From: a virus
Taxonomy: Duplodnaviria > Heunggongvirae > Uroviricota > Caudoviricetes
DNA: 64,000 nt
Direction: 5' to 3' (one strand)
Virus record (IMG/VR): IMGVR_UViG_2744054962_000001
In this document: positions 3,732-46,637 of the stretch, piece after piece
Numbering within the stretch: the first letter of the stretch is position 1
Layout: every line of letters begins with the position of its first letter
Position numbers and translations under genes: made by a program
Notes under the pieces: generated by a model
What the model saw: only the letters and a program-made list of their open reading frames with translations
What the model was told of the DNA's origin: nothing
The model's database searches: none

Positions 3732-4067
3732 ATGGAAAGACAAACGTTTAATTGGTATCCAGATTACGAATCTGAAAAAAGCGTAAAACCGAATGTAACG
3801 GTACTTAATTTTGGTGATGACTACGAGCAGCGACAGGCTCAAGGTCTTAATCGTATTAAAGAAGAATGGTCGTTAACCTTTACCAGATCATACAACGAAA
3901 TTAATGCAATCGATGACTTCCTGACTGAGCGAGCAGGCGTTGAGTCGTTCTATTGGGTTAATCCAAGAGGAAAACGGATTGTAGTTGTATGTGACAGTCA
4001 TACGGTCAAGCGATATCAGGGGTACTGTGTCTTAACTGCTACATTCAGACAAGTATTTGAGGCTTAA
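3732..4067 (+). CDS. minor tail protein (lambda gpM-like)
   Basis: 111 aa, position directly after tape measure and before gpL-like gene; size and synteny as in lambda. Confidence 0.55.
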   Translation: MERQTFNWYPDYESEKSVKPNVTVLNFGDDYEQRQAQGLNRIKEEWSLTFTRSYNEINAIDDFLTERAGVESFYWVNPRGKRIVVVCDSHTVKRYQGYCVLTATFRQVFEA

Positions 4068-4848: not shown

Positions 4849-5638
4849 TAAAGCAATCCCTGAGCTTGGCTCTGATGTTATGCAGCAAATCTATCTCTGC
4901 GCCATAAATCGCTACCCTAATGAAGCGTGTGGCTTTCTGGTGAGAACTAATGGCGACAAATATCGCTTTATGGAAGCGCGAAATGTTTCGGAGAACCCGC
5001 AGAACACTTTTGTAATGCACGTTGACGACATTATGGCGGCAGAGGATGCGGGTGATGTTATCGCAATCTGGCATTCACATACTGATGAATCAGCAGAAGC
5101 ATCTGATGCCGATCGTGCAGGCTGCGAAGCGACGGAAGTTCCGTGGATGATTCTGGCTATTCGCAAGAATGTTGAGGGAGATGCCCCTTTCCATTTTAGC
5201 GAGATGAATGTGATCACTCCTGATGGTTTCGAAATGCCATACCTGGGTAGACCGTATGTATTTGGCGTATTCGATTGCTGGATGTTGTGTCGGGACTATT
5301 TGAAGCGTGAGTTTAACGTCGAGCTTAACCCGAACGCACACCTGCATATTCCATCGTGGTACACCGGCGATAACGACATTCTCGACCAGAACTACCGAAA
5401 CGAGGGATTGGTACGGCTTGCGCCTGGAACAAAGCCTCAACGTGGGGACGTCTTCTTTATTCAATACGGGAAAATGCCAGATCACTGCGCGGTTTATATC
5501 GGCGATGGAATGATTCTTCATCACCAGATCGACCGTCTTAGTTGTCGTGCTTATTACGGCGGAATGTATCAGAAACATACGACGCATCACTTGCGTCACA
5601 GAGACTTGCTCAAGGGAGATGAGACGTGTCTGAGTTAG
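4841..5638 (+). CDS. tail assembly protein K-like (MPN/JAMM plus NlpC/P60-like)
   Basis: EACGFLV and WHSHTDE (JAMM-type HxH) motifs, later Cys/His peptidase-like region; ORF track starts at 4814 but the ATG at 4841 overlapping the gpL stop is the likelier start. Confidence 0.6.
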   Translation: MGNKAIPELGSDVMQQIYLCAINRYPNEACGFLVRTNGDKYRFMEARNVSENPQNTFVMHVDDIMAAEDAGDVIAIWHSHTDESAEASDADRAGCEATEVPWMILAIRKNVEGDAPFHFSEMNVITPDGFEMPYLGRPYVFGVFDCWMLCRDYLKREFNVELNPNAHLHIPSWYTGDNDILDQNYRNEGLVRLAPGTKPQRGDVFFIQYGKMPDHCAVYIGDGMILHHQIDRLSCRAYYGGMYQKHTTHHLRHRDLLKGDETCLS

Positions 5639-6219
5639 TTCATGTGCAGCTTGGCGGCCCTATGGCCAAACATTTTGGCCGCCACTGGCATCTAAAGGTG
5701 CGCAATACAAAACAGGCTCTGGATTTAATTGAGGCCAACAAGCCTGGGTTTAAAGCATGGATGAAGCGCAATATCAAAACCTATGACCGTTACCACATCC
5801 AGATCACCAATAAACAGGGCCACAAGTGGTCTGTTGACGAAAGTGAATATCAGATGATGGGGCAGTCTGACAACATTGCCAAAATCCGCATTACACCTGT
5901 TCCGCGAGGAAGCGGTGGATCTGCTTTTGGGTGGTTTCAGACGGTAGTAGGGGCCGCTTTGTTGGTTGTATCGGCGGTAGTGATGCCTGCTTTAGCACCT
6001 CTCGGTTTGTCACTGATGATGGGCGGCATATCACAAATCATATCGCCGCAAGCCACTAACGAAAGTGTGAGACAGGCAGATAACTCGAACTCTTATTATT
6101 TCGACGGCCCTCAAAATACAGAAAACCAGGGCAACCCAGTACAACTTATCTATGGCGAGGAAATTCTGGTTGGCTCACAGGTTGTGAGTTCTTCAATCAC
6201 GATTGACCAGCTAATGTAA
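5626..6219 (+). CDS. tail assembly protein I-like
   Basis: 197 aa with hydrophobic central segment; position between K-like and J-like genes. Confidence 0.45.
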   Translation: MSELVHVQLGGPMAKHFGRHWHLKVRNTKQALDLIEANKPGFKAWMKRNIKTYDRYHIQITNKQGHKWSVDESEYQMMGQSDNIAKIRITPVPRGSGGSAFGWFQTVVGAALLVVSAVVMPALAPLGLSLMMGGISQIISPQATNESVRQADNSNSYYFDGPQNTENQGNPVQLIYGEEILVGSQVVSSSITIDQLM

Positions 6220-6230
6220 ACAAGGATTTT

Positions 6231-9200
6231 TTGAACATGGAACAGTTCAAGAAGAAAAAGCTACCGCTGTTTATTGCCGGTGCGGGTGGTAAAAAAAGCA
6301 GCAAAAGCTCCAGCCGTACACCGGTTGAAGCCGACGATACCGTAAATTCTCGTGCAATGGCCGCTATCCTCGATCTTCTTGGGGAAGGGGTAATTGGCGG
6401 CTTAGTAAATGGCGCAAGATCTATTTTTATCGACGATCTGCCGATTGTAAATGAAGACGGTTCCTCCAACTTCAGCGGAATCACATGGGATTTTCGCGAC
6501 GGTTCACAAGACCAGACTCCAATGTCTGGCTTTGATTTCGTTGAAACGCCTAAATCCGTCAATATCCAGTTAAAAAAAACACATTATGTAACGGTTTCAA
6601 TCGATAACGATGAAGCTGATCGGGTTCGTGTCATCATGAAGTTTCCTTCTTTGCGAAGCATAGATAAAAAAACTGGTGACACGAACGGTACGACTGTTGA
6701 GTACAAGTTCCAGATAGCAAATGGCGACTCAACATTTGTAGATGTGGTCGCTGAAGGTGAAAAAAGCGTTGGCATTAAGCTAACAGCAAAGAAGACCGGC
6801 GTTTATTACCGTAGCTATGAGCTGAAGCTGCCTAAGCCTGGACGAGCATACAAGGTTCGTGTGGTCCGTATTACCGATGATAACAGCAGCCAGTATCTCT
6901 ATAACGATACATGGGTGGACTCAATAGGTGAGATTGTAGATACACCGATGAACTACCCAAACTCTGTGCTGGTGGGTCTGAAGGTTAATTCTGAGCAGTT
7001 TGGTAGCACCATGCCATCTCGTTCGTATTTGGTACGTGGATTAAAAATTCGCGTGCCGTCAAACTACAACGAGGCCAGCAACACTTATGATGGTGTATGG
7101 GATGGCACTTTTAAGCTGTTGTCTTCTTCAAACCCCGCGTGGATTCTCTTTGATTTGCTGACCAATGCTCGATATGGCCTTGGTCAGTATGTGTCGGAAT
7201 CTATGATTGACCTTGGCCAGTTGTACCAGATTGGTCGATATTGTGACGAAGAGGTCGATGATGGCTTTGGTGGCAAAGAGAAACGCTTTGCAATCAATAC
7301 GCAGATCACCAGTCGACAGGACGCATACCGGCTAATTCAGGATATTGCCGGAGCATTCCGCGGCATGGTGTTTTGGGCTGGTGGGATGGTTAACATCATG
7401 CAGGATAGCCCATCAGATCCGGTAATGATGTTTACCAACTCTAACGTCAAAGATGGATTGTTTACCTATAAAGGTTCTGCGCGTAAAGATCGCCCATCCG
7501 TTGCGCTCGTAACCTACAACAACAAGGAGGACGGTTATAAGCAAAACATCGAGTACGTTGAAGATCAGGACGCAATGCGCCGTTATGGTGAGCGTAAGAC
7601 AGAAGTCGTAGCATTTGGCTGTACAAGCCGAGGCCAGGCCCACCGAGTTGGTTTATGGCTTTTGTATACAGCCAGAATGGAGTCGGATGTAATTACATTT
7701 ACTGCCGGCTTAGATGCGTCATTCCTGATGCCTGGTGAAACCGTTCTGATTCAGAACAAATATCGCGCAGGCAAACGTAACTCAGGTCGAATTGTGGCGT
7801 TTACCAAAAACAGCGTCACACTCGATGCGCCTGTGTCGTTAGCCAAAGGCGGCTGCTTTATTCGAATACTGAATCAGGAAGGCAAAATCGTTGAACGCGA
7901 TGTTCTTGAAACTGGCGAAAATATAACAAAAGTTACGTTTTCAAAAGCCCTGTCTTCTGCTGAAACGCCTGTTTTGAACGGCGTCTGGACTATTACAGAA
8001 CCAGATCTCGAACCTATGCGCGTTCGCATTGTTAACATAGCACAGGGGGAAACGCCGGGTAGCTTTGACATCACCGCTGTTGAGAACAATCCGTCTAAAT
8101 ATGAGGCGATCGATAATGGTGCAACGCTTATCCCGCAGAATACGACGGTATTGGACCCGACTTATTCCAAGCCGTCTAATTTGCAAATCACTGAAGGGAC
8201 TTATCTCTCAAGCCCGGGCAACCTGTCAGTAAAACTGACTGCAACATGGGAAGGGAAATCTCCAGAGTATTGGATCAGTTGGCGACGTTCTGATGCAAAC
8301 AATGTATCGAACTGGCAATCGGCGCGTGTAACCGAAGAGCAATACGAAATCGTTAATGTCGCGGAGAATGGACGCTACGACTTCCAGCTGTATGCGGTTT
8401 CATTCAACGGTAAAAAAACAGAGATTATCAGTACCGTTTATCAGGTGCTGGGCACAATGACACCGCCAGATGCCCCAACGTCATTAACGGCCGTTGGAGA
8501 CTATCGTAATGTGATACTGAATTGGGTTAATCCAGATTCGGTAGACCTTGATCACATTAATGTTTACGCATCCCAGACCAACAATCTGGATACAGCGAAA
8601 CTGATCGCAGAGTCTGCAAGCACCACCTTTACACATGCTGGTCTTGGGGATAGCGAAACGTGGTATTACTGGGTTCGTGCGTCAAACAAGCGCGGTATGT
8701 TGAGTCCTCCGAACTCAAACTTGGGTACAGAGGCGACGACTCGCGATGTGCTGTCGTTCCTGACAGGCAAAATTACGTCTTCTGAACTTGGCCAGACTTT
8801 ACTTGAGGAAATCGACTCAAAAGTATCTCAGGAGGCGGTGGATTCCATCTATCAACAGATGGAAGAAAGTCTGAAAATCCTCGATGACAAATTTACAGAT
8901 GCCGATCAGCGGCTTGAAGAAGCTCAAAACAATCTTAAAACGGAAGTTTCCGGTACTGTCAGCAAGGTGGAAGACGCACTTAAGGAGGTTGCAAACTCTA
9001 ACGCTGCCTTAATTCAGTTGCAGGAAACTGTATCAGAGCAGGGTAAAGCTGTAGCTGGAGCTGTTGAGGCGGCAAATGCAGCACTTGACAATTCATCGGC
9101 TTTAATTGCGGAGGAGCGTGAAGCACGAGTTGAGGGTGACTTGGCAAACGCGAAAGAAATCGAGGCGATGAAGTCAACTGTAGATAGCAGTTTAGCCACC

Positions 9201-28253: not shown

Positions 28254-28328
28254 GATGGTGTAGCTCAGCGGTAGAGCAGTTGGCTGTTAACCAACTGGTC
28301 GGTGGTTCGAATCCACCCACCATCGCCA
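28254..28328 (+). tRNA. tRNA-Asn (anticodon GTT)
   Basis: cloverleaf read by hand: acceptor GATGGTG/CACCATC, D-arm GCTC-AGCGGTA-GAGC, anticodon loop CTGTTAA, T-arm GGTGG-TTCGAAT-CCACC, encoded CCA. Confidence 0.8.
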
Positions 28329-28330
28329 AT

Positions 28331-28406
28331 GCCGGTTTAGCTCAGTTGGTAGAGCACCTGCCTTGTAAGCAGGATGTCAGCGGTTCGAATCCGTTAACCG
28401 GCACCA
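28331..28406 (+). tRNA. tRNA-Thr (anticodon TGT)
   Basis: acceptor GCCGGTT/AACCGGC, anticodon stem CCTGC/GCAGG with loop CTTGTAA, T-loop TTCGAAT, encoded CCA. Confidence 0.8.
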
Positions 28407-28414
28407 ACACAATT

Positions 28415-28501
28415 GGAGAGTAGAGAGCATGGTGCTCAAGCGGTCTTGAAAGCCGTCCCATTGCGCAAGCGATGATGGTTCGATTCCATTACTCTCCGCC
28501 A
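28415..28501 (+). tRNA. tRNA-Ser (anticodon TGA), type II with long variable arm
   Basis: acceptor GGAGAGT/ACTCTCC, anticodon loop CTTGAAA, variable-arm hairpin CATTGC-gcaa-GCGATG, T-loop TTCGATT, encoded CCA. Confidence 0.7.
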
Positions 28502-41995: not shown

Positions 41996-43024
41996 ATGTC
42001 TAAGACATTACTTGATTTGCTTAACAAAACTCGTGAAGACATTGCCGCCAAACGTGGTAACAACGTTGATCTGACTCGCTTAAAAGACGGCGTCAACTAT
42101 ATCCGCATCTTCCCGAATAAAGACGACCCAAACGGTAAGTTCTTCCAGACTTTCGGTATGCACTACGTTAAGTATCAGAACGAGGAAGGTAAAGAAGCAA
42201 CCAACGCTTATATTTGTGAGCAACATACTCACGGTCGCGCTTGTCAGCTATGCGAAATGGTGATGGAAGGTCGCGCTCGTCACAAGGGTAACAAAGCAAT
42301 GGAAGAACGCATCGGTCAAATGCGTGCCACTCCTCGCTACCTGGTCAACGGCATTCTTTCTGCTCGTGAGGATTTCGCAGATGCTGAGAAATGCCAGTTA
42401 ATCGAGCTGCCGTCTACTGTATTCGATGATATCTGCAAAGCAATCACCGAAGACATCGCTGATGATATCGGCAATCCACTGAGCAAAGAGGAAGGCTACG
42501 CATTCCTGATTAAACGTACTGGCTCTGGTCGCGATACCAAATATGACGTCTCGCCTAAGCGTAAAGTCTACAAAGGCGATATCGAAGATAAATTCTGGAA
42601 CACCCAGCATGATCTGATCGCATACGCAAATCAGGCTGATGAAACTCGTCTTCTGTCGACAGTTCGCACTATGGGTCGTCTGATTGGCATCGCTGCACCA
42701 ACTGCCGCAGCATCTGCACCAGCAATTTCCTCAACCGCGAAAACATCGGCTGCGGCACTACCTGGATTTGGCTCTGTCACTGGTCATACAGAAGGAGCGA
42801 CGGCTGTAGCAACCGCGCACACACCGGCTTCTGAACCAACCAGTCTGGTTGATGAAGAAATCCTCCGTGCCGTTGAAACTGAATTTAAACCAGAGGCAAG
42901 TTCCGCTGCCGTTGCCGTATCAGTCAAAGAGTCTGAAGCAGTCGCAGCGACATCTGTAGCAACCGCATCTGCGACGGAAGATGAAGGTCTGGATGACCTA
43001 CTGAGAGAGCTGGACTCTCTGTAA
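41996..43024 (+). CDS. ssDNA-binding protein (T4 gp32-like)
   Basis: NYIRIFPNKDDPNGKFFQTFGMHYV and CEQHTHGRACQLC resemble gp32 core and zinc-site pattern; acidic Ala/Ser-rich C-terminal tail. Confidence 0.5.
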   Translation: MSKTLLDLLNKTREDIAAKRGNNVDLTRLKDGVNYIRIFPNKDDPNGKFFQTFGMHYVKYQNEEGKEATNAYICEQHTHGRACQLCEMVMEGRARHKGNKAMEERIGQMRATPRYLVNGILSAREDFADAEKCQLIELPSTVFDDICKAITEDIADDIGNPLSKEEGYAFLIKRTGSGRDTKYDVSPKRKVYKGDIEDKFWNTQHDLIAYANQADETRLLSTVRTMGRLIGIAAPTAAASAPAISSTAKTSAAALPGFGSVTGHTEGATAVATAHTPASEPTSLVDEEILRAVETEFKPEASSAAVAVSVKESEAVAATSVATASATEDEGLDDLLRELDSL

Positions 43025-43033
43025 TCCCATTAC

Positions 43034-44029
43034 GTGACCAGTAAGGCGTCTACGGACGCCTTACTTTTTGGAAGGAATGTACCGGTGAATTATCTCTTCG
43101 TAGATGGCAATAGCCTGGGTTATTACCACCAACAATCTGACAAATTGCACAACGGCGAAATGGAAGTACAGGCTGCTTTCGGCTTTGTTAAGAACGTCCG
43201 TCGTTATGCCTCCATCCTCCATGCCCGACCTATGATTCTTTGGGATGGATTTAGTGACAAGCGTCGCGACTTTTACCCGGACTACAAAGCAAATCGCGAC
43301 GACGATCCTGATATGAAAAAGATGAAGGAAGGCTTTGCTATCCAGAAGCCATACATCCTCAAAATGATGACCGCGCTTGGAGTTACCCAACTCATTGCAA
43401 AAGATGCAGAAGCGGATGATCTGGCCGGGCTGCTGGTATCCCGCATGGCACCGCAGCCAACCGTTGAACACATCTATCTGTTAACAGGCGATAGCGACTG
43501 GCTTCAGTTAGTTCGTGAAAACGTAAGCTGGGTAAGCCTGCGTGAAGACGCCAAAAACAAGCAGGTTAATTTTGAGCAATTTGCGGAGCTGACAGGATTC
43601 GCCACGCCTCGCGCATTTTTGGAAGCAAAAGCATTACAAGGCGATAACTCGGACAACATTAGCGGTGTTGGTGGCATTGGTGCTGGCGGTGCGAAAGAGC
43701 TGCTGCATGAATGGGGAAGTGTCGCAACGATGGTACGCGGCATCAACGACGGCTCAATCGTGGTTAATAAAGGGCGTCATAAGACCGCCTTCAACAAACT
43801 AGCGAAGAATGCCTTCAACGAGAAAACAGGCTGTCGAATGCTCGAAGCGTTCAAGAGAAACATCACGCTAATGAACCTGATTGAGACGAAGTTTCCGCCT
43901 ACCGAAATCGAAACAATCAAAGGCAATCGTGACGTGAAAGCATTCGAGCAACTGTGCTACGAGCTGAATTTCCGTTCGTTCCTTGAAGACCTTGAAGTGT
44001 TTGTTCTTCCATTCGAAAGGTATTGCTAA
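43034..44029 (+). CDS. 5'-3' exonuclease / flap endonuclease (PIN-like)
   Basis: YLFVDGNSLGYY, AKDAEADDLAG, helix-hairpin-helix region; track ATG at 43034 lies inside the upstream terminator, true start likely GTG near 43085. Confidence 0.7.
   Translation: MTSKASTDALLFGRNVPVNYLFVDGNSLGYYHQQSDKLHNGEMEVQAAFGFVKNVRRYASILHARPMILWDGFSDKRRDFYPDYKANRDDDPDMKKMKEGFAIQKPYILKMMTALGVTQLIAKDAEADDLAGLLVSRMAPQPTVEHIYLLTGDSDWLQLVRENVSWVSLREDAKNKQVNFEQFAELTGFATPRAFLEAKALQGDNSDNISGVGGIGAGGAKELLHEWGSVATMVRGINDGSIVVNKGRHKTAFNKLAKNAFNEKTGCRMLEAFKRNITLMNLIETKFPPTEIETIKGNRDVKAFEQLCYELNFRSFLEDLEVFVLPFERYC
43041..43069 (+). terminator. rho-independent terminator (AGGCGTC hairpin family)
   Basis: GTAAGGCGTC-tacg-GACGCCTTAC then TTTTT. 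Confidence 0.7.
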
Positions 44030-44295
44030 TGCTTAAATCGATTATTAATGGCGCTACAACCACCCCTACCCAACTGGCAAAAGAGATTGTCTTTTATCAC
44101 GGTGAGTACGCTGTCATCGCACTGCCGTCAATTCTGGGCGCTGCCGGAATGAAAGCGACAGATCGCGAGTTTGGATTAGTCAGCGAGCAGGTCGTAAAAA
44201 TCCTCGCTCGTGTATCCAGACTCCTTAACCACGATGCGATTGTATTCGACGAATCCGCCGCTTTAAAACGAATCAACGAAACAAAAGGAGCCTGA
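44023..44295 (+). CDS. hypothetical protein
   Basis: 90 aa, coupled between exonuclease and recombinase genes. Confidence 0.3.
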   Translation: MLMLKSIINGATTTPTQLAKEIVFYHGEYAVIALPSILGAAGMKATDREFGLVSEQVVKILARVSRLLNHDAIVFDESAALKRINETKGA

Positions 44296-44297
44296 TC

Positions 44298-46637
44298 ATG
44301 GCAAAAGGAAAATCCGCACTGGCACTTGCTCTGAAAAAGAAAATCGGTAGCAACGACGAAATTCAGAAAGTAACTCATTGGATTGATACAGGCTTTCCAC
44401 CGTTAAACAAAGCTATTTCTGGTCGTTACGATGGCGGCTTCCCATGTGGTCGTATCGTCGAAGTATTCGGTCCTCCAAGCGCGGGGAAATGTGTTACCGC
44501 AGACACCATGCTGCTGACGGAGCGTGGAATGGTAACAGTGAAAGAGTTGTTTGAGATTGAAGGGTACAAAGCGACATGCACTACTCGCGATGTAGAGCAT
44601 AACGTTGGACTCATCAATGAAAATGGCGTGATAGAGAAGACCTCACACCTGACATGGAACAACCGTCGCAAATTCAAGCGTATTAAGCTGGCATCAGGCG
44701 GTTATATCGAGGCTACGTTCCGTCACCCAATCCGTGTGGTTGACGACTTAGGTAATGTCGTCTGGCGACATGCTGAAAAAATCAGTGTAGGCGACACGAT
44801 TCCTTCAATGGTTGGCACACATCAATTCGGCGATCAGCACCTGGATGCCAATATCGCAAAACTGATGGGCTATTTAATTGCTGACGGATACGTGGCCTCT
44901 GAAAATTCAGTGAATTTTTCTAACACAGATCCTTTCATCAAGGATGAGTACTACCGCCTCATTTCGCTGGTATCAGACAAGATGCCAGTTACGAGAAAAC
45001 ATAACGGCTCGGAAGACCATGTGCTGTTTAGCAAAGAGGTGCGTTCGCTGCTTTTTAAAGAATATGGTCTGGAGTATGAGAAAGCTGCTGGCAAGCAGGT
45101 TCCGTTGAGTGTGCGTCGCGCCAATAGCGAGGCTCAAATTGCATTCCTTCGCGGCTACTTTGAGCTGGAATGCCACGTCAATGATGGTCGCTGCATTGAG
45201 GTTGTGAGCGCGAGTGGGCTGCTGCTACAGCAAATTCGCCTCATGCTCCTGAATCTGGGGATTACGTCAACTATCTCTGAAAAACACGTCGCGGGTTATG
45301 AAAATACATATTACCGGCTGTCATTCAGTGGCTCTAATTACGACCTTTTTCTGTCAACGATTGGTTTCGAATCTCCGGCACGTTTATCAGTGGCAACCAA
45401 ACGGGACATTGGTTTTGACCGCACTTACTCAGGCTATGTTCCGCACATCAGCGGCTTAGTGAAATCACTCTACGAGTCGCTCACCAAGACCACCCGTGAA
45501 GACTACGCTCTGGTAGACCACGTTATTGGCCGCGGCGATCGTGTCGGAATAGACAAACTGCGAGAAATCTATGTCTCCTTCATTGGCAGAAAGAATCGTT
45601 TTAACGAGCATCTGTTTGCACAACTGGCAGCGGTAATTGGCTCTAACTTGTTCTACGACGAAGTCGTGGCTATTGAGGAAGGTGAAGCACCAACGTTCGA
45701 CGTAGCGATGCCGGAAACACACTCTTTCTGGTCTAACGGGATTATCAGCCACAACACATTCCTTGCAACAGCAGCGATGATCTCCGCTCAAAAACAAGAT
45801 GGTCTGGCGGTATTCCTCGATCATGAAAACAGTTTTGACGTTGGCCTGGCTGTAGCCAATGGCCTGAACGCAGATGAGGATGACGGTCAGTGGGTATACA
45901 AGCAGCCTGATACCTTCGAAGACTCTGTAGAGTTGATCGGCACAATACTTAAATTGGTACGTGATGAAGAGCTTATCCCCGAATCAGCACCTATCTGTAT
46001 CGTGGCTGACTCTCTTGCGTCTATGGTTCCGAACTCCAAAGCCGAGAAGTTCGAAAAGATGGCTGAAGGCACTGCCAAAGACAAAGATCAGCTAAACATG
46101 AACGACAATACGGCACTGGCTCGTGCGACGAGTGCGAACTTCCCTACTCTGGCTTTGTGGGCACGCAAATACAACGCCTGCATCATCTTCTTGAATCAGG
46201 TTCGCACAAAAATCGGTGTAATGTTTGGCGACCCTACTACGTCGCCAGGTGGAGATTCACCGAAGTTCTACGCATCTGTACGTATCCGTCTTGGTGCATC
46301 GGTGATGAAGGATGGTAAAGAGAAGATCGGTCAGGACGTAGGCGCAGAATGCATCAAAAACAAAGTTGCACCACCGTATGGCAAATGCACCTGGAAATTC
46401 TACTTCGATCCTACTCGTGGCCTCGACGTTATCGAGTCGCTCGTCGAGTACATGCTGGAAGAAGGATACCTGCCAAAGAACGCCAGCGGTCGAGTAGAAA
46501 TTGGTGACAAGAAATACACCAAATCACAGATCGTCGAGATGTATCGGGAGAAGCCACTGGCTGAAATCATTGCGGCTTTGCAGGCAATCGACGACCGAAG
46601 AGCAAAAGACAACCCCACCGAGTCAGTAGAAGAGTAA
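44298..46637 (+). CDS. RecA-family recombinase interrupted by an intein
   Basis: exteins join as GPPSAGK|TFLATAAM (P-loop) with RecA-like L2 region GGDSPKFYASVRIRLG; combined exteins about 357 aa. Confidence 0.8.
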   Translation: MAKGKSALALALKKKIGSNDEIQKVTHWIDTGFPPLNKAISGRYDGGFPCGRIVEVFGPPSAGKCVTADTMLLTERGMVTVKELFEIEGYKATCTTRDVEHNVGLINENGVIEKTSHLTWNNRRKFKRIKLASGGYIEATFRHPIRVVDDLGNVVWRHAEKISVGDTIPSMVGTHQFGDQHLDANIAKLMGYLIADGYVASENSVNFSNTDPFIKDEYYRLISLVSDKMPVTRKHNGSEDHVLFSKEVRSLLFKEYGLEYEKAAGKQVPLSVRRANSEAQIAFLRGYFELECHVNDGRCIEVVSASGLLLQQIRLMLLNLGITSTISEKHVAGYENTYYRLSFSGSNYDLFLSTIGFESPARLSVATKRDIGFDRTYSGYVPHISGLVKSLYESLTKTTREDYALVDHVIGRGDRVGIDKLREIYVSFIGRKNRFNEHLFAQLAAVIGSNLFYDEVVAIEEGEAPTFDVAMPETHSFWSNGIISHNTFLATAAMISAQKQDGLAVFLDHENSFDVGLAVANGLNADEDDGQWVYKQPDTFEDSVELIGTILKLVRDEELIPESAPICIVADSLASMVPNSKAEKFEKMAEGTAKDKDQLNMNDNTALARATSANFPTLALWARKYNACIIFLNQVRTKIGVMFGDPTTSPGGDSPKFYASVRIRLGASVMKDGKEKIGQDVGAECIKNKVAPPYGKCTWKFYFDPTRGLDVIESLVEYMLEEGYLPKNASGRVEIGDKKYTKSQIVEMYREKPLAEIIAALQAIDDRRAKDNPTESVEE
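44490..45755 (+). mobile_element. intein with LAGLIDADG-type homing endonuclease domain inside recA-like gene
   Basis: begins with Cys directly after SAGK, ends ...IISHN followed by Thr; internal LAGLIDADG-like motifs (LMGYLIADGYV, FLRGYFELECHV); 422 aa. Confidence 0.75.

Follow-up and report, generated by a model that had tools for sequence, protein, structure and literature searches.

A probable class-1 intein with a nested LAGLIDADG endonuclease in the RecA-like recombinase of SSU5-family phage-plasmids, and the sequence signature of its recent homing

The position between the invariant lysine of the Walker A motif and the nucleophilic threonine after it is the "classic" P-loop site of intein insertion in phage terminases (PMC5050341), and insertion there is known in many bacterial and archaeal ATPases (PMC5050341 and PMC4760082). 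The RadA recombinases of Pyrococcus and Thermococcus carry a mini-intein in their P-loop (PMC5790916). Here we describe an insert at the same position in the gene for a RecA-like recombinase, found on a 64,000-nucleotide (nt) stretch of viral DNA (IMG/VR record IMGVR_UViG_2744054962_000001; class Caudoviricetes), which we refer to as the window and to which all coordinates refer. With a probability of about 0.88 we take it to be a class-1 intein with a nested two-motif LAGLIDADG homing endonuclease, lying at GPPSAGK/T (the slash marks the insertion point) of the RecA-like recombinase of an SSU5-family phage-plasmid, and recently spread by homing.

The classic P-loop inteins (among them mycobacteriophage TerL1-a, archaeal RFC-S site a, DnaB-b and MCM-a) share with this one the GK/T position, the Thr+1 residue and an ATPase of DNA metabolism as host, but differ in the host protein itself, which here is a RecA-like recombinase of an enterobacterial phage-plasmid. 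The RadA inteins of P. horikoshii and Thermococcus sibericus also occupy the P-loop of a RecA/RadA recombinase, and their Hint domains superpose on that of the present intein [4e2t, Foldseek E ~8e-5]. They are, however, archaeal, lack an endonuclease and splice in a temperature-conditional manner, whereas the present intein is full-length, bacterial or viral, and has an apparently intact endonuclease. The inteins of Mycobacterium tuberculosis RecA (PI-MtuI) and M. leprae RecA are likewise LAGLIDADG-bearing class-1 inteins in a bacterial RecA-family protein. Kinship with them was considered and rejected: the site differs, the mycobacterial intein being far downstream of the P-loop, and the M. 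tuberculosis RecA intein 2imz ranks only 50th in Foldseek. The NCBIfam model NF007072 ("intein-containing recombinase RecA") aligns without interruption, its extein positions 71-253 corresponding to residues 484-691 of our open reading frame (ORF). In its architecture, a Hint domain with a LAGLIDADG domain nested at the conserved endonuclease insertion point, the intein resembles TliVMA/PhoVMA, PI-PkoII, PI-PfuI and PI-SceI [2e-20 to 1e-9], but these are archaeal or yeast elements with other host genes and targets, and sequence identity is 10–21%. Identity to any solved intein is only about 20%. Among NCBIfam models the intein part is most like the intein-containing archaeal RFC small-subunit and IF2 models, the match including the GPPxxGK flank.

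The gene and its insert are laid out as follows.

44298..44489, + strand: N-extein of the RecA-like recombinase, amino acids (aa) 1-64, ending in GPPSAGK, the first seven Walker A residues (translation, Pfam, RecA alignment)
44490..45755, + strand: intein, 422 aa, a Hint domain for splicing, interrupted by a LAGLIDADG homing-endonuclease domain (Pfam, NCBIfam, AlphaFold, Foldseek)
45756..46637, + strand: C-extein, aa 487-779 plus stop, beginning with Thr+1 (second nucleophile and last Walker A residue) and continuing through the remaining RecA core

The longest ORF across the interval (44298..46637) encodes 779 aa. GPPSAGK occupies residues 58-64, the insert begins with Cys1 at residue 65 (nt 44490) and runs in frame to residue 486 (nt 45755), the terminal Asn of ...GIISHN, after which comes the Thr; the joined exteins make 357 aa. 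An earlier note, made from the letters of the sequence alone, had put an intein of 422 aa at exactly these coordinates, opening with Cys and closing with His-Asn before Thr, with LAGLIDADG-like blocks inside and a protein of about 357 aa with a continuous Walker A restored by its removal. The coordinates, lengths and terminal residues are exact on translation, and the remaining points of that description stand as well. Pfam finds RecA in the whole ORF in two stretches [3.3e-36], together with LAGLIDADG_3 [2.4e-17] and Intein_splicing [2.1e-11, residues 73-486], matches well past what chance would give; once the insert is deleted in silico the RecA match is unbroken and its E-value improves to 2.2e-42. 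Since the joined junction GRIVEVFGPPSAGKTFLA aligns with the Walker A motif of E. coli RecA GRIVEIYGPESSGKTTLT, the intein lies between the invariant Lys and Thr of the P-loop. The predicted spliced junction reads ...GPPSAGK-TFLATAAM..., that is, ...VFGPPSAGK-TFLATAAMISAQK.

Within the intein the following blocks were recognized.

44490..44519, + strand: block A, CVTADTMLLT, with Cys1 as first nucleophile; kept in relatives
44697..44738, + strand: block B, GGYIEATFRHPIRV, with the TxxH motif (EATFRHP; intein Thr76 and His79); relatives keep this Thr and His
44856..44894, + strand: block C, first LAGLIDADG motif, AKLMGYLIADGYV (LMGYLIADG; putative catalytic Asp132); aligns with the motif of the TliVMA intein and of PI-PkoII
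45090..45113, + strand: block D, GKQVPLSV, with the conserved Lys and Pro of intein endonucleases
45138..45179, + strand: block E, second LAGLIDADG motif, IAFLRGYFELECHV (LRGYFELEC; putative catalytic Glu227); Glu227 aligns with the Asp of the TliVMA motif
45222..45263, + strand: block H, LLQQIRLMLLNLGI, the best-conserved stretch of the endonuclease domain among relatives
45690..45755, + strand: blocks F and G, PTFDVAMPETHSFWSNGIISHN, with Asp404, His411, penultimate His421 and terminal Asn422

The insert has the sequence features of a class-1 intein: Cys1, the TxxH of block B and a C-terminal His-Asn with Thr+1. It also has a predicted Hint fold and collinear intein-free homologues. The endonuclease part has two LAGLIDADG motifs, each with an acidic residue (Asp132 and Glu227). 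Searched on its own, the intein matches Pfam LAGLIDADG_3 [4.3e-18, intein aa 215-292] and Intein_splicing (spanning intein aa 9-422). Comparison with intein profiles, which the earlier note had pointed to, recognizes both ends above the curated NCBIfam cut-offs: intein_Nterm at 35.5 bits (cut-off 24.5) and intein_Cterm at 17.8 bits (cut-off 15.6). In a sequence search of the PDB both LAGLIDADG motifs match those of TliVMA and PI-PkoII.

An AlphaFold2 model of the intein, built from an 11-sequence alignment, has a mean predicted local distance difference test score (pLDDT) of 83.3 and a predicted template modelling score of 0.85. It presents a beta-rich part (residues 1-107 and 387-421) around a helix-rich middle. 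Its full-length matches in a Foldseek search of the PDB are the TliVMA intein [7qss, E 2e-20, template modelling score 0.70], PI-PkoII [2cw7], PI-PfuI [1dq3] and PI-SceI; mini-inteins match the Hint part, with a root-mean-square deviation of 2.2–2.4 Å over about 110 residues, and I-DmoI matches the endonuclease part. Both the predicted model and the Foldseek matches thus point to a Hint fold and, nested in it, the pseudo-dimeric alpha-beta-beta-alpha-beta-beta-alpha LAGLIDADG fold. A helical segment that follows the LAGLIDADG core and precedes the C-terminal splicing strands (residues 296-385) is modelled less confidently, at pLDDT 64–83. PI-PfuI and PI-PkoII have extra DNA-binding domains, and by analogy this segment may help to bind DNA.

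Alleles with and without the insert were collected by scanning IMG/VR with the extein protein. The 80 loci found, together with phage records and the window itself, form an allele set with 20 intein-carrying and 64 intein-free members (L, followed by a number, denotes a locus). All 20 intein copies are intact at 1266 nt and keep the reading frame through both exteins. Escherichia phage CMS-2020a [CP053388.1] has the same gene without the insert, 1074 nt long and collinear over the site, and its 357-aa product is 100% identical to our joined exteins; such a comparison with intein-free relatives had also been anticipated in the earlier note, and its outcome supports an insertion at this position. 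The two genes differ at 14 nucleotides, all of them synonymous and in third codon positions, three within 10 nt of the junction. Its empty site is GGTCCTCCAAGTGCAGGGAAAACGTTCCTTGCAACAGCAGCG, and the intein-free site around the insertion point reads GGTCCTCCAAGTGCAGGGAAA/ACGTTCCTTGCA. The gene of phage SSU5 is also intein-free.

Four intein-free alleles (L009, L019, L020 and L064) have the upstream sequence GCGGGGAAA found in all intein-carrying alleles, but ACG or ACC as the +1 codon. They may have lost the intein precisely, or may represent the ancestral type of allele that was first invaded. In another intein-free allele, L084 (IMGVR_UViG_2724678972_000008, ~3750-4040), the N-extein is replaced: residues 1-59 are exchanged for the N-terminus of another P-loop protein (...ALTFATGEAGC), which joins AAGKTFLATAAM... 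with a frame offset of one nucleotide. The join falls exactly in the sequence coding for Walker A, which is the homing site. A break there may have been repaired ectopically, two P-loop sequences may have recombined, or the join may be an artefact of assembly.

One might argue that the insert does not splice, and that what the ORF represents is a RecA gene put out of action or, in effect, a homing endonuclease to which remnants of RecA cling. Most copies are indeed named for the endonuclease domain only by the NCBI Prokaryotic Genome Annotation Pipeline (PGAP), and one copy of the gene is disrupted. In L085, a locus of the complete 110-kb plasmid p2 [CP059946.1, 59490-63609, reverse complement], an IS1 of 768 bp with its 8-bp target duplication AATTTTTC sits within the endonuclease-coding part (locus positions ~1116-1902, corresponding to window nt 44913-44920). 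Because this IS1 knocks out the whole gene in an otherwise complete plasmid, the RecA-like gene is dispensable at least for plasmid maintenance, and the description of it as an essential recombination gene in the earlier note finds no support. Against a non-splicing insert stand the full set of splicing residues (Cys1, Thr76/His79, Asp404, His421, Asn422 and Thr+1), an extein protein that differs from an intein-free allele by synonymous changes only, and a frame that is open through both exteins in 20 of 20 copies. We therefore regard a non-splicing insert as very improbable. We infer from the sequence that the intein both splices and cleaves DNA, since the catalytic residues are complete, the extein proteins cannot be distinguished from those of intein-free alleles and the frame is intact in all sampled copies.

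The inteins are far more alike than the genes that carry them. Among the 20 intein-carrying alleles, nucleotide divergence of the exteins reaches 19.6%, whereas that of the inteins is 0–3.4%; the exteins of L003 (a Klebsiella phage) and L080 are 15.0% apart, their inteins 0.0%. Nei-Gojobori synonymous divergence (dS) for the same pairs is 1.15–2.05 in the exteins and 0–0.09 in the inteins. When the window is compared with L003 and L080 in sliding 150-nt segments, identity is 0.92–1.00 within 44490-45755 and 0.71–0.87 in both flanks, and the step coincides with the intein borders. Presence of the intein is patchy even between close relatives: for 11 of 18 representative intein-carrying alleles, with every main backbone represented at least once, an intein-free sibling exists at about 1–2% extein divergence, and for the remaining seven the nearest intein-free allele is 2.9–5.5% away. 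Taken by itself this patchiness would also be compatible with an intein ancestral to the phage-plasmid family, inherited vertically and repeatedly lost with precision, of which L009, L019, L020 and L064 could be the loss alleles. Vertical descent, however, predicts equal dS in intein and exteins, and no jump in identity exactly at the intein borders. On the dS contrast we rejected it, and consider it barely tenable.

The bases next to the intein are shared too, and are read as co-conversion tracts.

44481..44489, + strand: upstream junction flank GCG GGG AAA, the same in 20 of 20 intein-carrying alleles
45756..45763, + strand: downstream junction flank ACA TTC CT, the same in all intein-carrying alleles

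These 17 nt (-9 to +8) are identical in all intein-carrying alleles whatever the backbone, whereas intein-free siblings use other synonymous codons. When every intein-carrying allele is set against the closest sibling that lacks the intein, the two are always different at -7 and +3, and in most cases at -4 or -10 and at +6, +7 and +9 too. Co-conversion in the course of double-strand-break repair leaves such a pattern. In three clearly different backbones the converted tract is only about 10 nt per side. We had also considered ACA at the +1 codon as exclusive to intein-carrying alleles; this was dropped, as the intein-free L036, L037 and L052 have it as well. The near-identical inteins in diverged exteins, the sharp borders and the shared junction flanks together make up, at the level of sequence, a signature of recent homing, that is, of horizontal spread over divergent backbones in Escherichia, Klebsiella and Enterobacter.

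Several points weigh against homing. The shared flanks and the divergence contrast are indirect, and do not prove that the endonuclease made the break. The junction differences were counted over alleles sharing ancestry, so that the binomial P value is inflated and is not used as a probability; of the backbones, about three are clearly independent. Nothing can be read from base composition: G+C content is 0.46–0.50 throughout, with no foreign island to be seen by this measure. In the second LAGLIDADG motif the last two residues are Glu-Cys in place of Asp-Gly. Conceivably, then, the intein splices while its endonuclease is inactive, and has spread by ordinary homologous recombination between related plasmids residing in one cell. 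Such recombination could produce an island of low divergence, the phage-plasmids encode a recombination module of their own, and the locus does recombine, as two mosaic inteins from IMG/VR attest: in L075 and L066 the first 115 codons are of one type (E. coli) and the endonuclease part of the other (Klebsiella), or the reverse, so that crossovers have taken place inside the intein between intein-carrying alleles. Random recombination would nevertheless be expected to leave longer tracts of variable extent, and what is found in three divergent backbones is an exchanged segment that ends within about 10 nt of the intein on both sides, which fits repair of a break at that point. A Glu-Cys ending of the LAGLIDADG motif is tolerated in known enzymes. 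The ratio of non-synonymous to synonymous substitution (dN/dS) is about 0.15 for the intein and 0.18 for its endonuclease part; the latter value indicates purifying selection on the endonuclease domain, which has kept its two acidic residues as well as blocks C, D, E and H. We thus consider an idle endonuclease unlikely, and homing the better explanation.

The proposed course of events would be as follows. The 779-aa precursor is translated, and its Hint domain (blocks A, B, F and G) would splice in four steps: N-S acyl shift at Cys1, trans-esterification to Thr+1, cyclization of Asn422 and O-N shift. This would release the 357-aa recombinase with an intact P-loop, and a free intein of 422 aa. 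When two phage-plasmids share a cell, the free intein would cut intein-free alleles of the same gene, and repair of the break from the intein-carrying allele would copy the intein together with a few flanking bases.

The selfish intein might double as a conditional switch, its splicing responding, for example, to redox state through Cys1 and nearby cysteines and so tying recombination to some stage in the life cycle of the phage-plasmid. This would be compatible with homing and does not exclude it. The suggestion draws on analogy with the P-loop RadA intein of P. horikoshii, for which conditional splicing is documented (PMC5790916), and with ATPase inteins, for which it has been proposed in general terms (PMC4760082). 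The sequence data hold nothing in favour of regulation, about half of the closely related plasmids manage without the intein, and its recent spread fits a purely selfish element. We give such a switch little credence.

More distant relatives were sought by searching the intein alone against 5.8 billion proteins. Besides close copies, this gave 11 distinct relatives (labelled P with a number), of which P0004–P0009 and P0011 are 37–47% and P0012–P0014 about 27–33% identical to it. In every relative with a recovered N-terminal junction (P0004–P0007 and P0012–P0014) the position GK/C...HN/T is the same; P0008, P0009 and P0011 are fragments starting inside the intein, in which only the ...HN/T end is visible. 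The RecA P-loop inteins from metagenomes and metagenome-assembled genomes (P0004–P0013) occupy the same GK/T site in RecA, have 28–45% identity as inteins and are true allelic relatives. They are far more divergent, however, their hosts include canonical chromosomal RecA (GPESSGK/.../TTLTLQ), and in some of them the endonuclease is decayed. P0007 is inserted in RecA as GPESSGK/CLSADT...ISHN/TTLTLQ, on a 550-kb contig of assembly GCA_027484465.1. P0004 comes from a metagenomic contig (L088; ENA ERZ27257820 k141_7541, 5001-7388) with a syntenic DnaE–gp32–5'-3' exonuclease–RecA module, its intein being 44% identical and at the GK/T site. Block F of L088 reads HSF-stop-SNGFISHN/T, the stop being an in-frame TGA at a position that is Trp in every relative. 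The gene may be a pseudogene, the TGA may be an error of sequencing, or it may be translated as Trp. The first LAGLIDADG motif is missing from P0007 and P0012, and P0013 (in RecA) and P0014 (in a RuvB-like AAA+ protein) are mini-inteins. A gradient from intact through decayed endonuclease to mini-intein is what the homing cycle leads one to expect, and is an established concept.

The distribution of gene and intein on plasmids was counted in PLSDB, by genus.

All genera: 731 plasmids with the gene, 248 with the intein
Escherichia: 231 with the gene, 123 with the intein
Klebsiella: 269 with the gene, 71 with the intein
Enterobacter: 85 with the gene, 41 with the intein
Citrobacter: 22 with the gene, 6 with the intein
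Cronobacter: 9 with the gene, 2 with the intein
Shigella: 8 with the gene, 2 with the intein
Salmonella: 40 with the gene, 1 with the intein
Yersinia: 63 with the gene, 0 with the intein

Nearly all of these intein copies are at least 95% identical to that of the window. Among 5,426 complete E. coli genomes the gene is present in 251 and its full-length intein-containing form in 114; no chromosomal copy was found among them, all copies being plasmid-borne. In Yersinia and Salmonella the codons of the homing site differ at several synonymous positions, and these differences might confer resistance to cleavage.

Automated annotation recognizes the element in part of the copies. On most plasmids of E. 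coli and Klebsiella, PGAP calls the product either "LAGLIDADG family homing endonuclease" or "hint domain-containing protein"; "recombinase RecA" is used as well, and only on some Enterobacter plasmids is it an "intein-containing recombinase RecA". PHROG 9666, a family of 779 positions covering the whole precursor, is labelled "unknown function". Names derived from the endonuclease hide a RecA-like recombinase in hundreds of enterobacterial phage-plasmids, and clustering of genes by length or name would split one family in two. In the literature searched (phage-plasmid, SSU5, homing endonuclease and UvsX contexts) we found no description of an intein in SSU5-like phage-plasmids. The present one is a new, or at least unpublished, example of a thoroughly known element.

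A gene on the E. coli plasmid pAVS0747-B [NZ_CP124469.1, 4284-6623] shares 99.9% identity with the ORF; for the Escherichia phages PhiR41_1 and Cyrano the figure is 98.4%, and the C-extein matches Salmonella phage SSU5. The extein is nearer to bacterial RecA than to T4 UvsX: E. coli RecA structures are matched with E-values of about 1e-31 to 1e-35, T4-type UvsX with 1e-5 to 2e-9. Its score against TIGR02012, the bacterial RecA equivalog, is 132.6 bits, below the cut-off of 325.3. It is not an orthologue of chromosomal RecA and, as it matches the RecA family yet falls far under the equivalog cut-off, "RecA-like phage-plasmid recombinase" is the best name for it. Immediately upstream lie three genes.

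41996-43024, + strand: gp32-like single-stranded-DNA-binding protein (SSB)
43034-44029, + strand: 5'-3' exonuclease
44023-44295, + strand: small conserved ORF

From 41996 onwards these three and the RecA-like gene form the recombination module of SSU5-like phage-plasmids. In phage Cyrano a gene annotated as a UvsY-like mediator lies upstream of that for SSB, and a gene for an SPFH protein is also among the neighbours of the RecA-like gene. Elsewhere in the window are genes for tape-measure and tail tip proteins, DnaE, ribonucleotide reductase, a ligase and a protein of the integrase family. On the strength of the gene matches, the neighbours and this remaining gene content, the window is an SSU5-family phage-plasmid of E. 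coli, in agreement with the mobile-element host that the earlier note had claimed. No further intein was found in DnaE or the large subunit of ribonucleotide reductase, both common hosts of inteins, or in eight other large ORFs scanned, among them those for the ligase and for SbcC-like and CobT-like proteins. At 28254-28501 (+), three tRNA genes (Asn-GTT, Thr-TGT and Ser-TGA) lie in a cluster.

As a standard intein at a standard site, the element leaves knowledge of inteins unchanged. What it adds is the signature of recent homing across lineages and the frequency of the element: about 2% of complete E. coli genomes (114/5,426) contain this native plasmid-borne intein. It makes a clean natural case of probable recent homing between phage-plasmids of different genera. 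A bolder view would make it a currently active endonuclease gene drive that crosses Escherichia, Klebsiella and Enterobacter by way of SSU5-family phage-plasmids, leaving short co-conversion tracts and perhaps also gating the recombinase, for instance by redox at Cys1, according to the lysogenic or lytic state; we think this quite unlikely. Were it true, E. coli would offer a natural and tractable system for the study of intein homing and its regulation in a clinically relevant mobile element. For the phage-plasmids themselves, the intein could be used to trace which of them have shared a cell and exchanged DNA, and it could provide an easy experimental model in E. coli.

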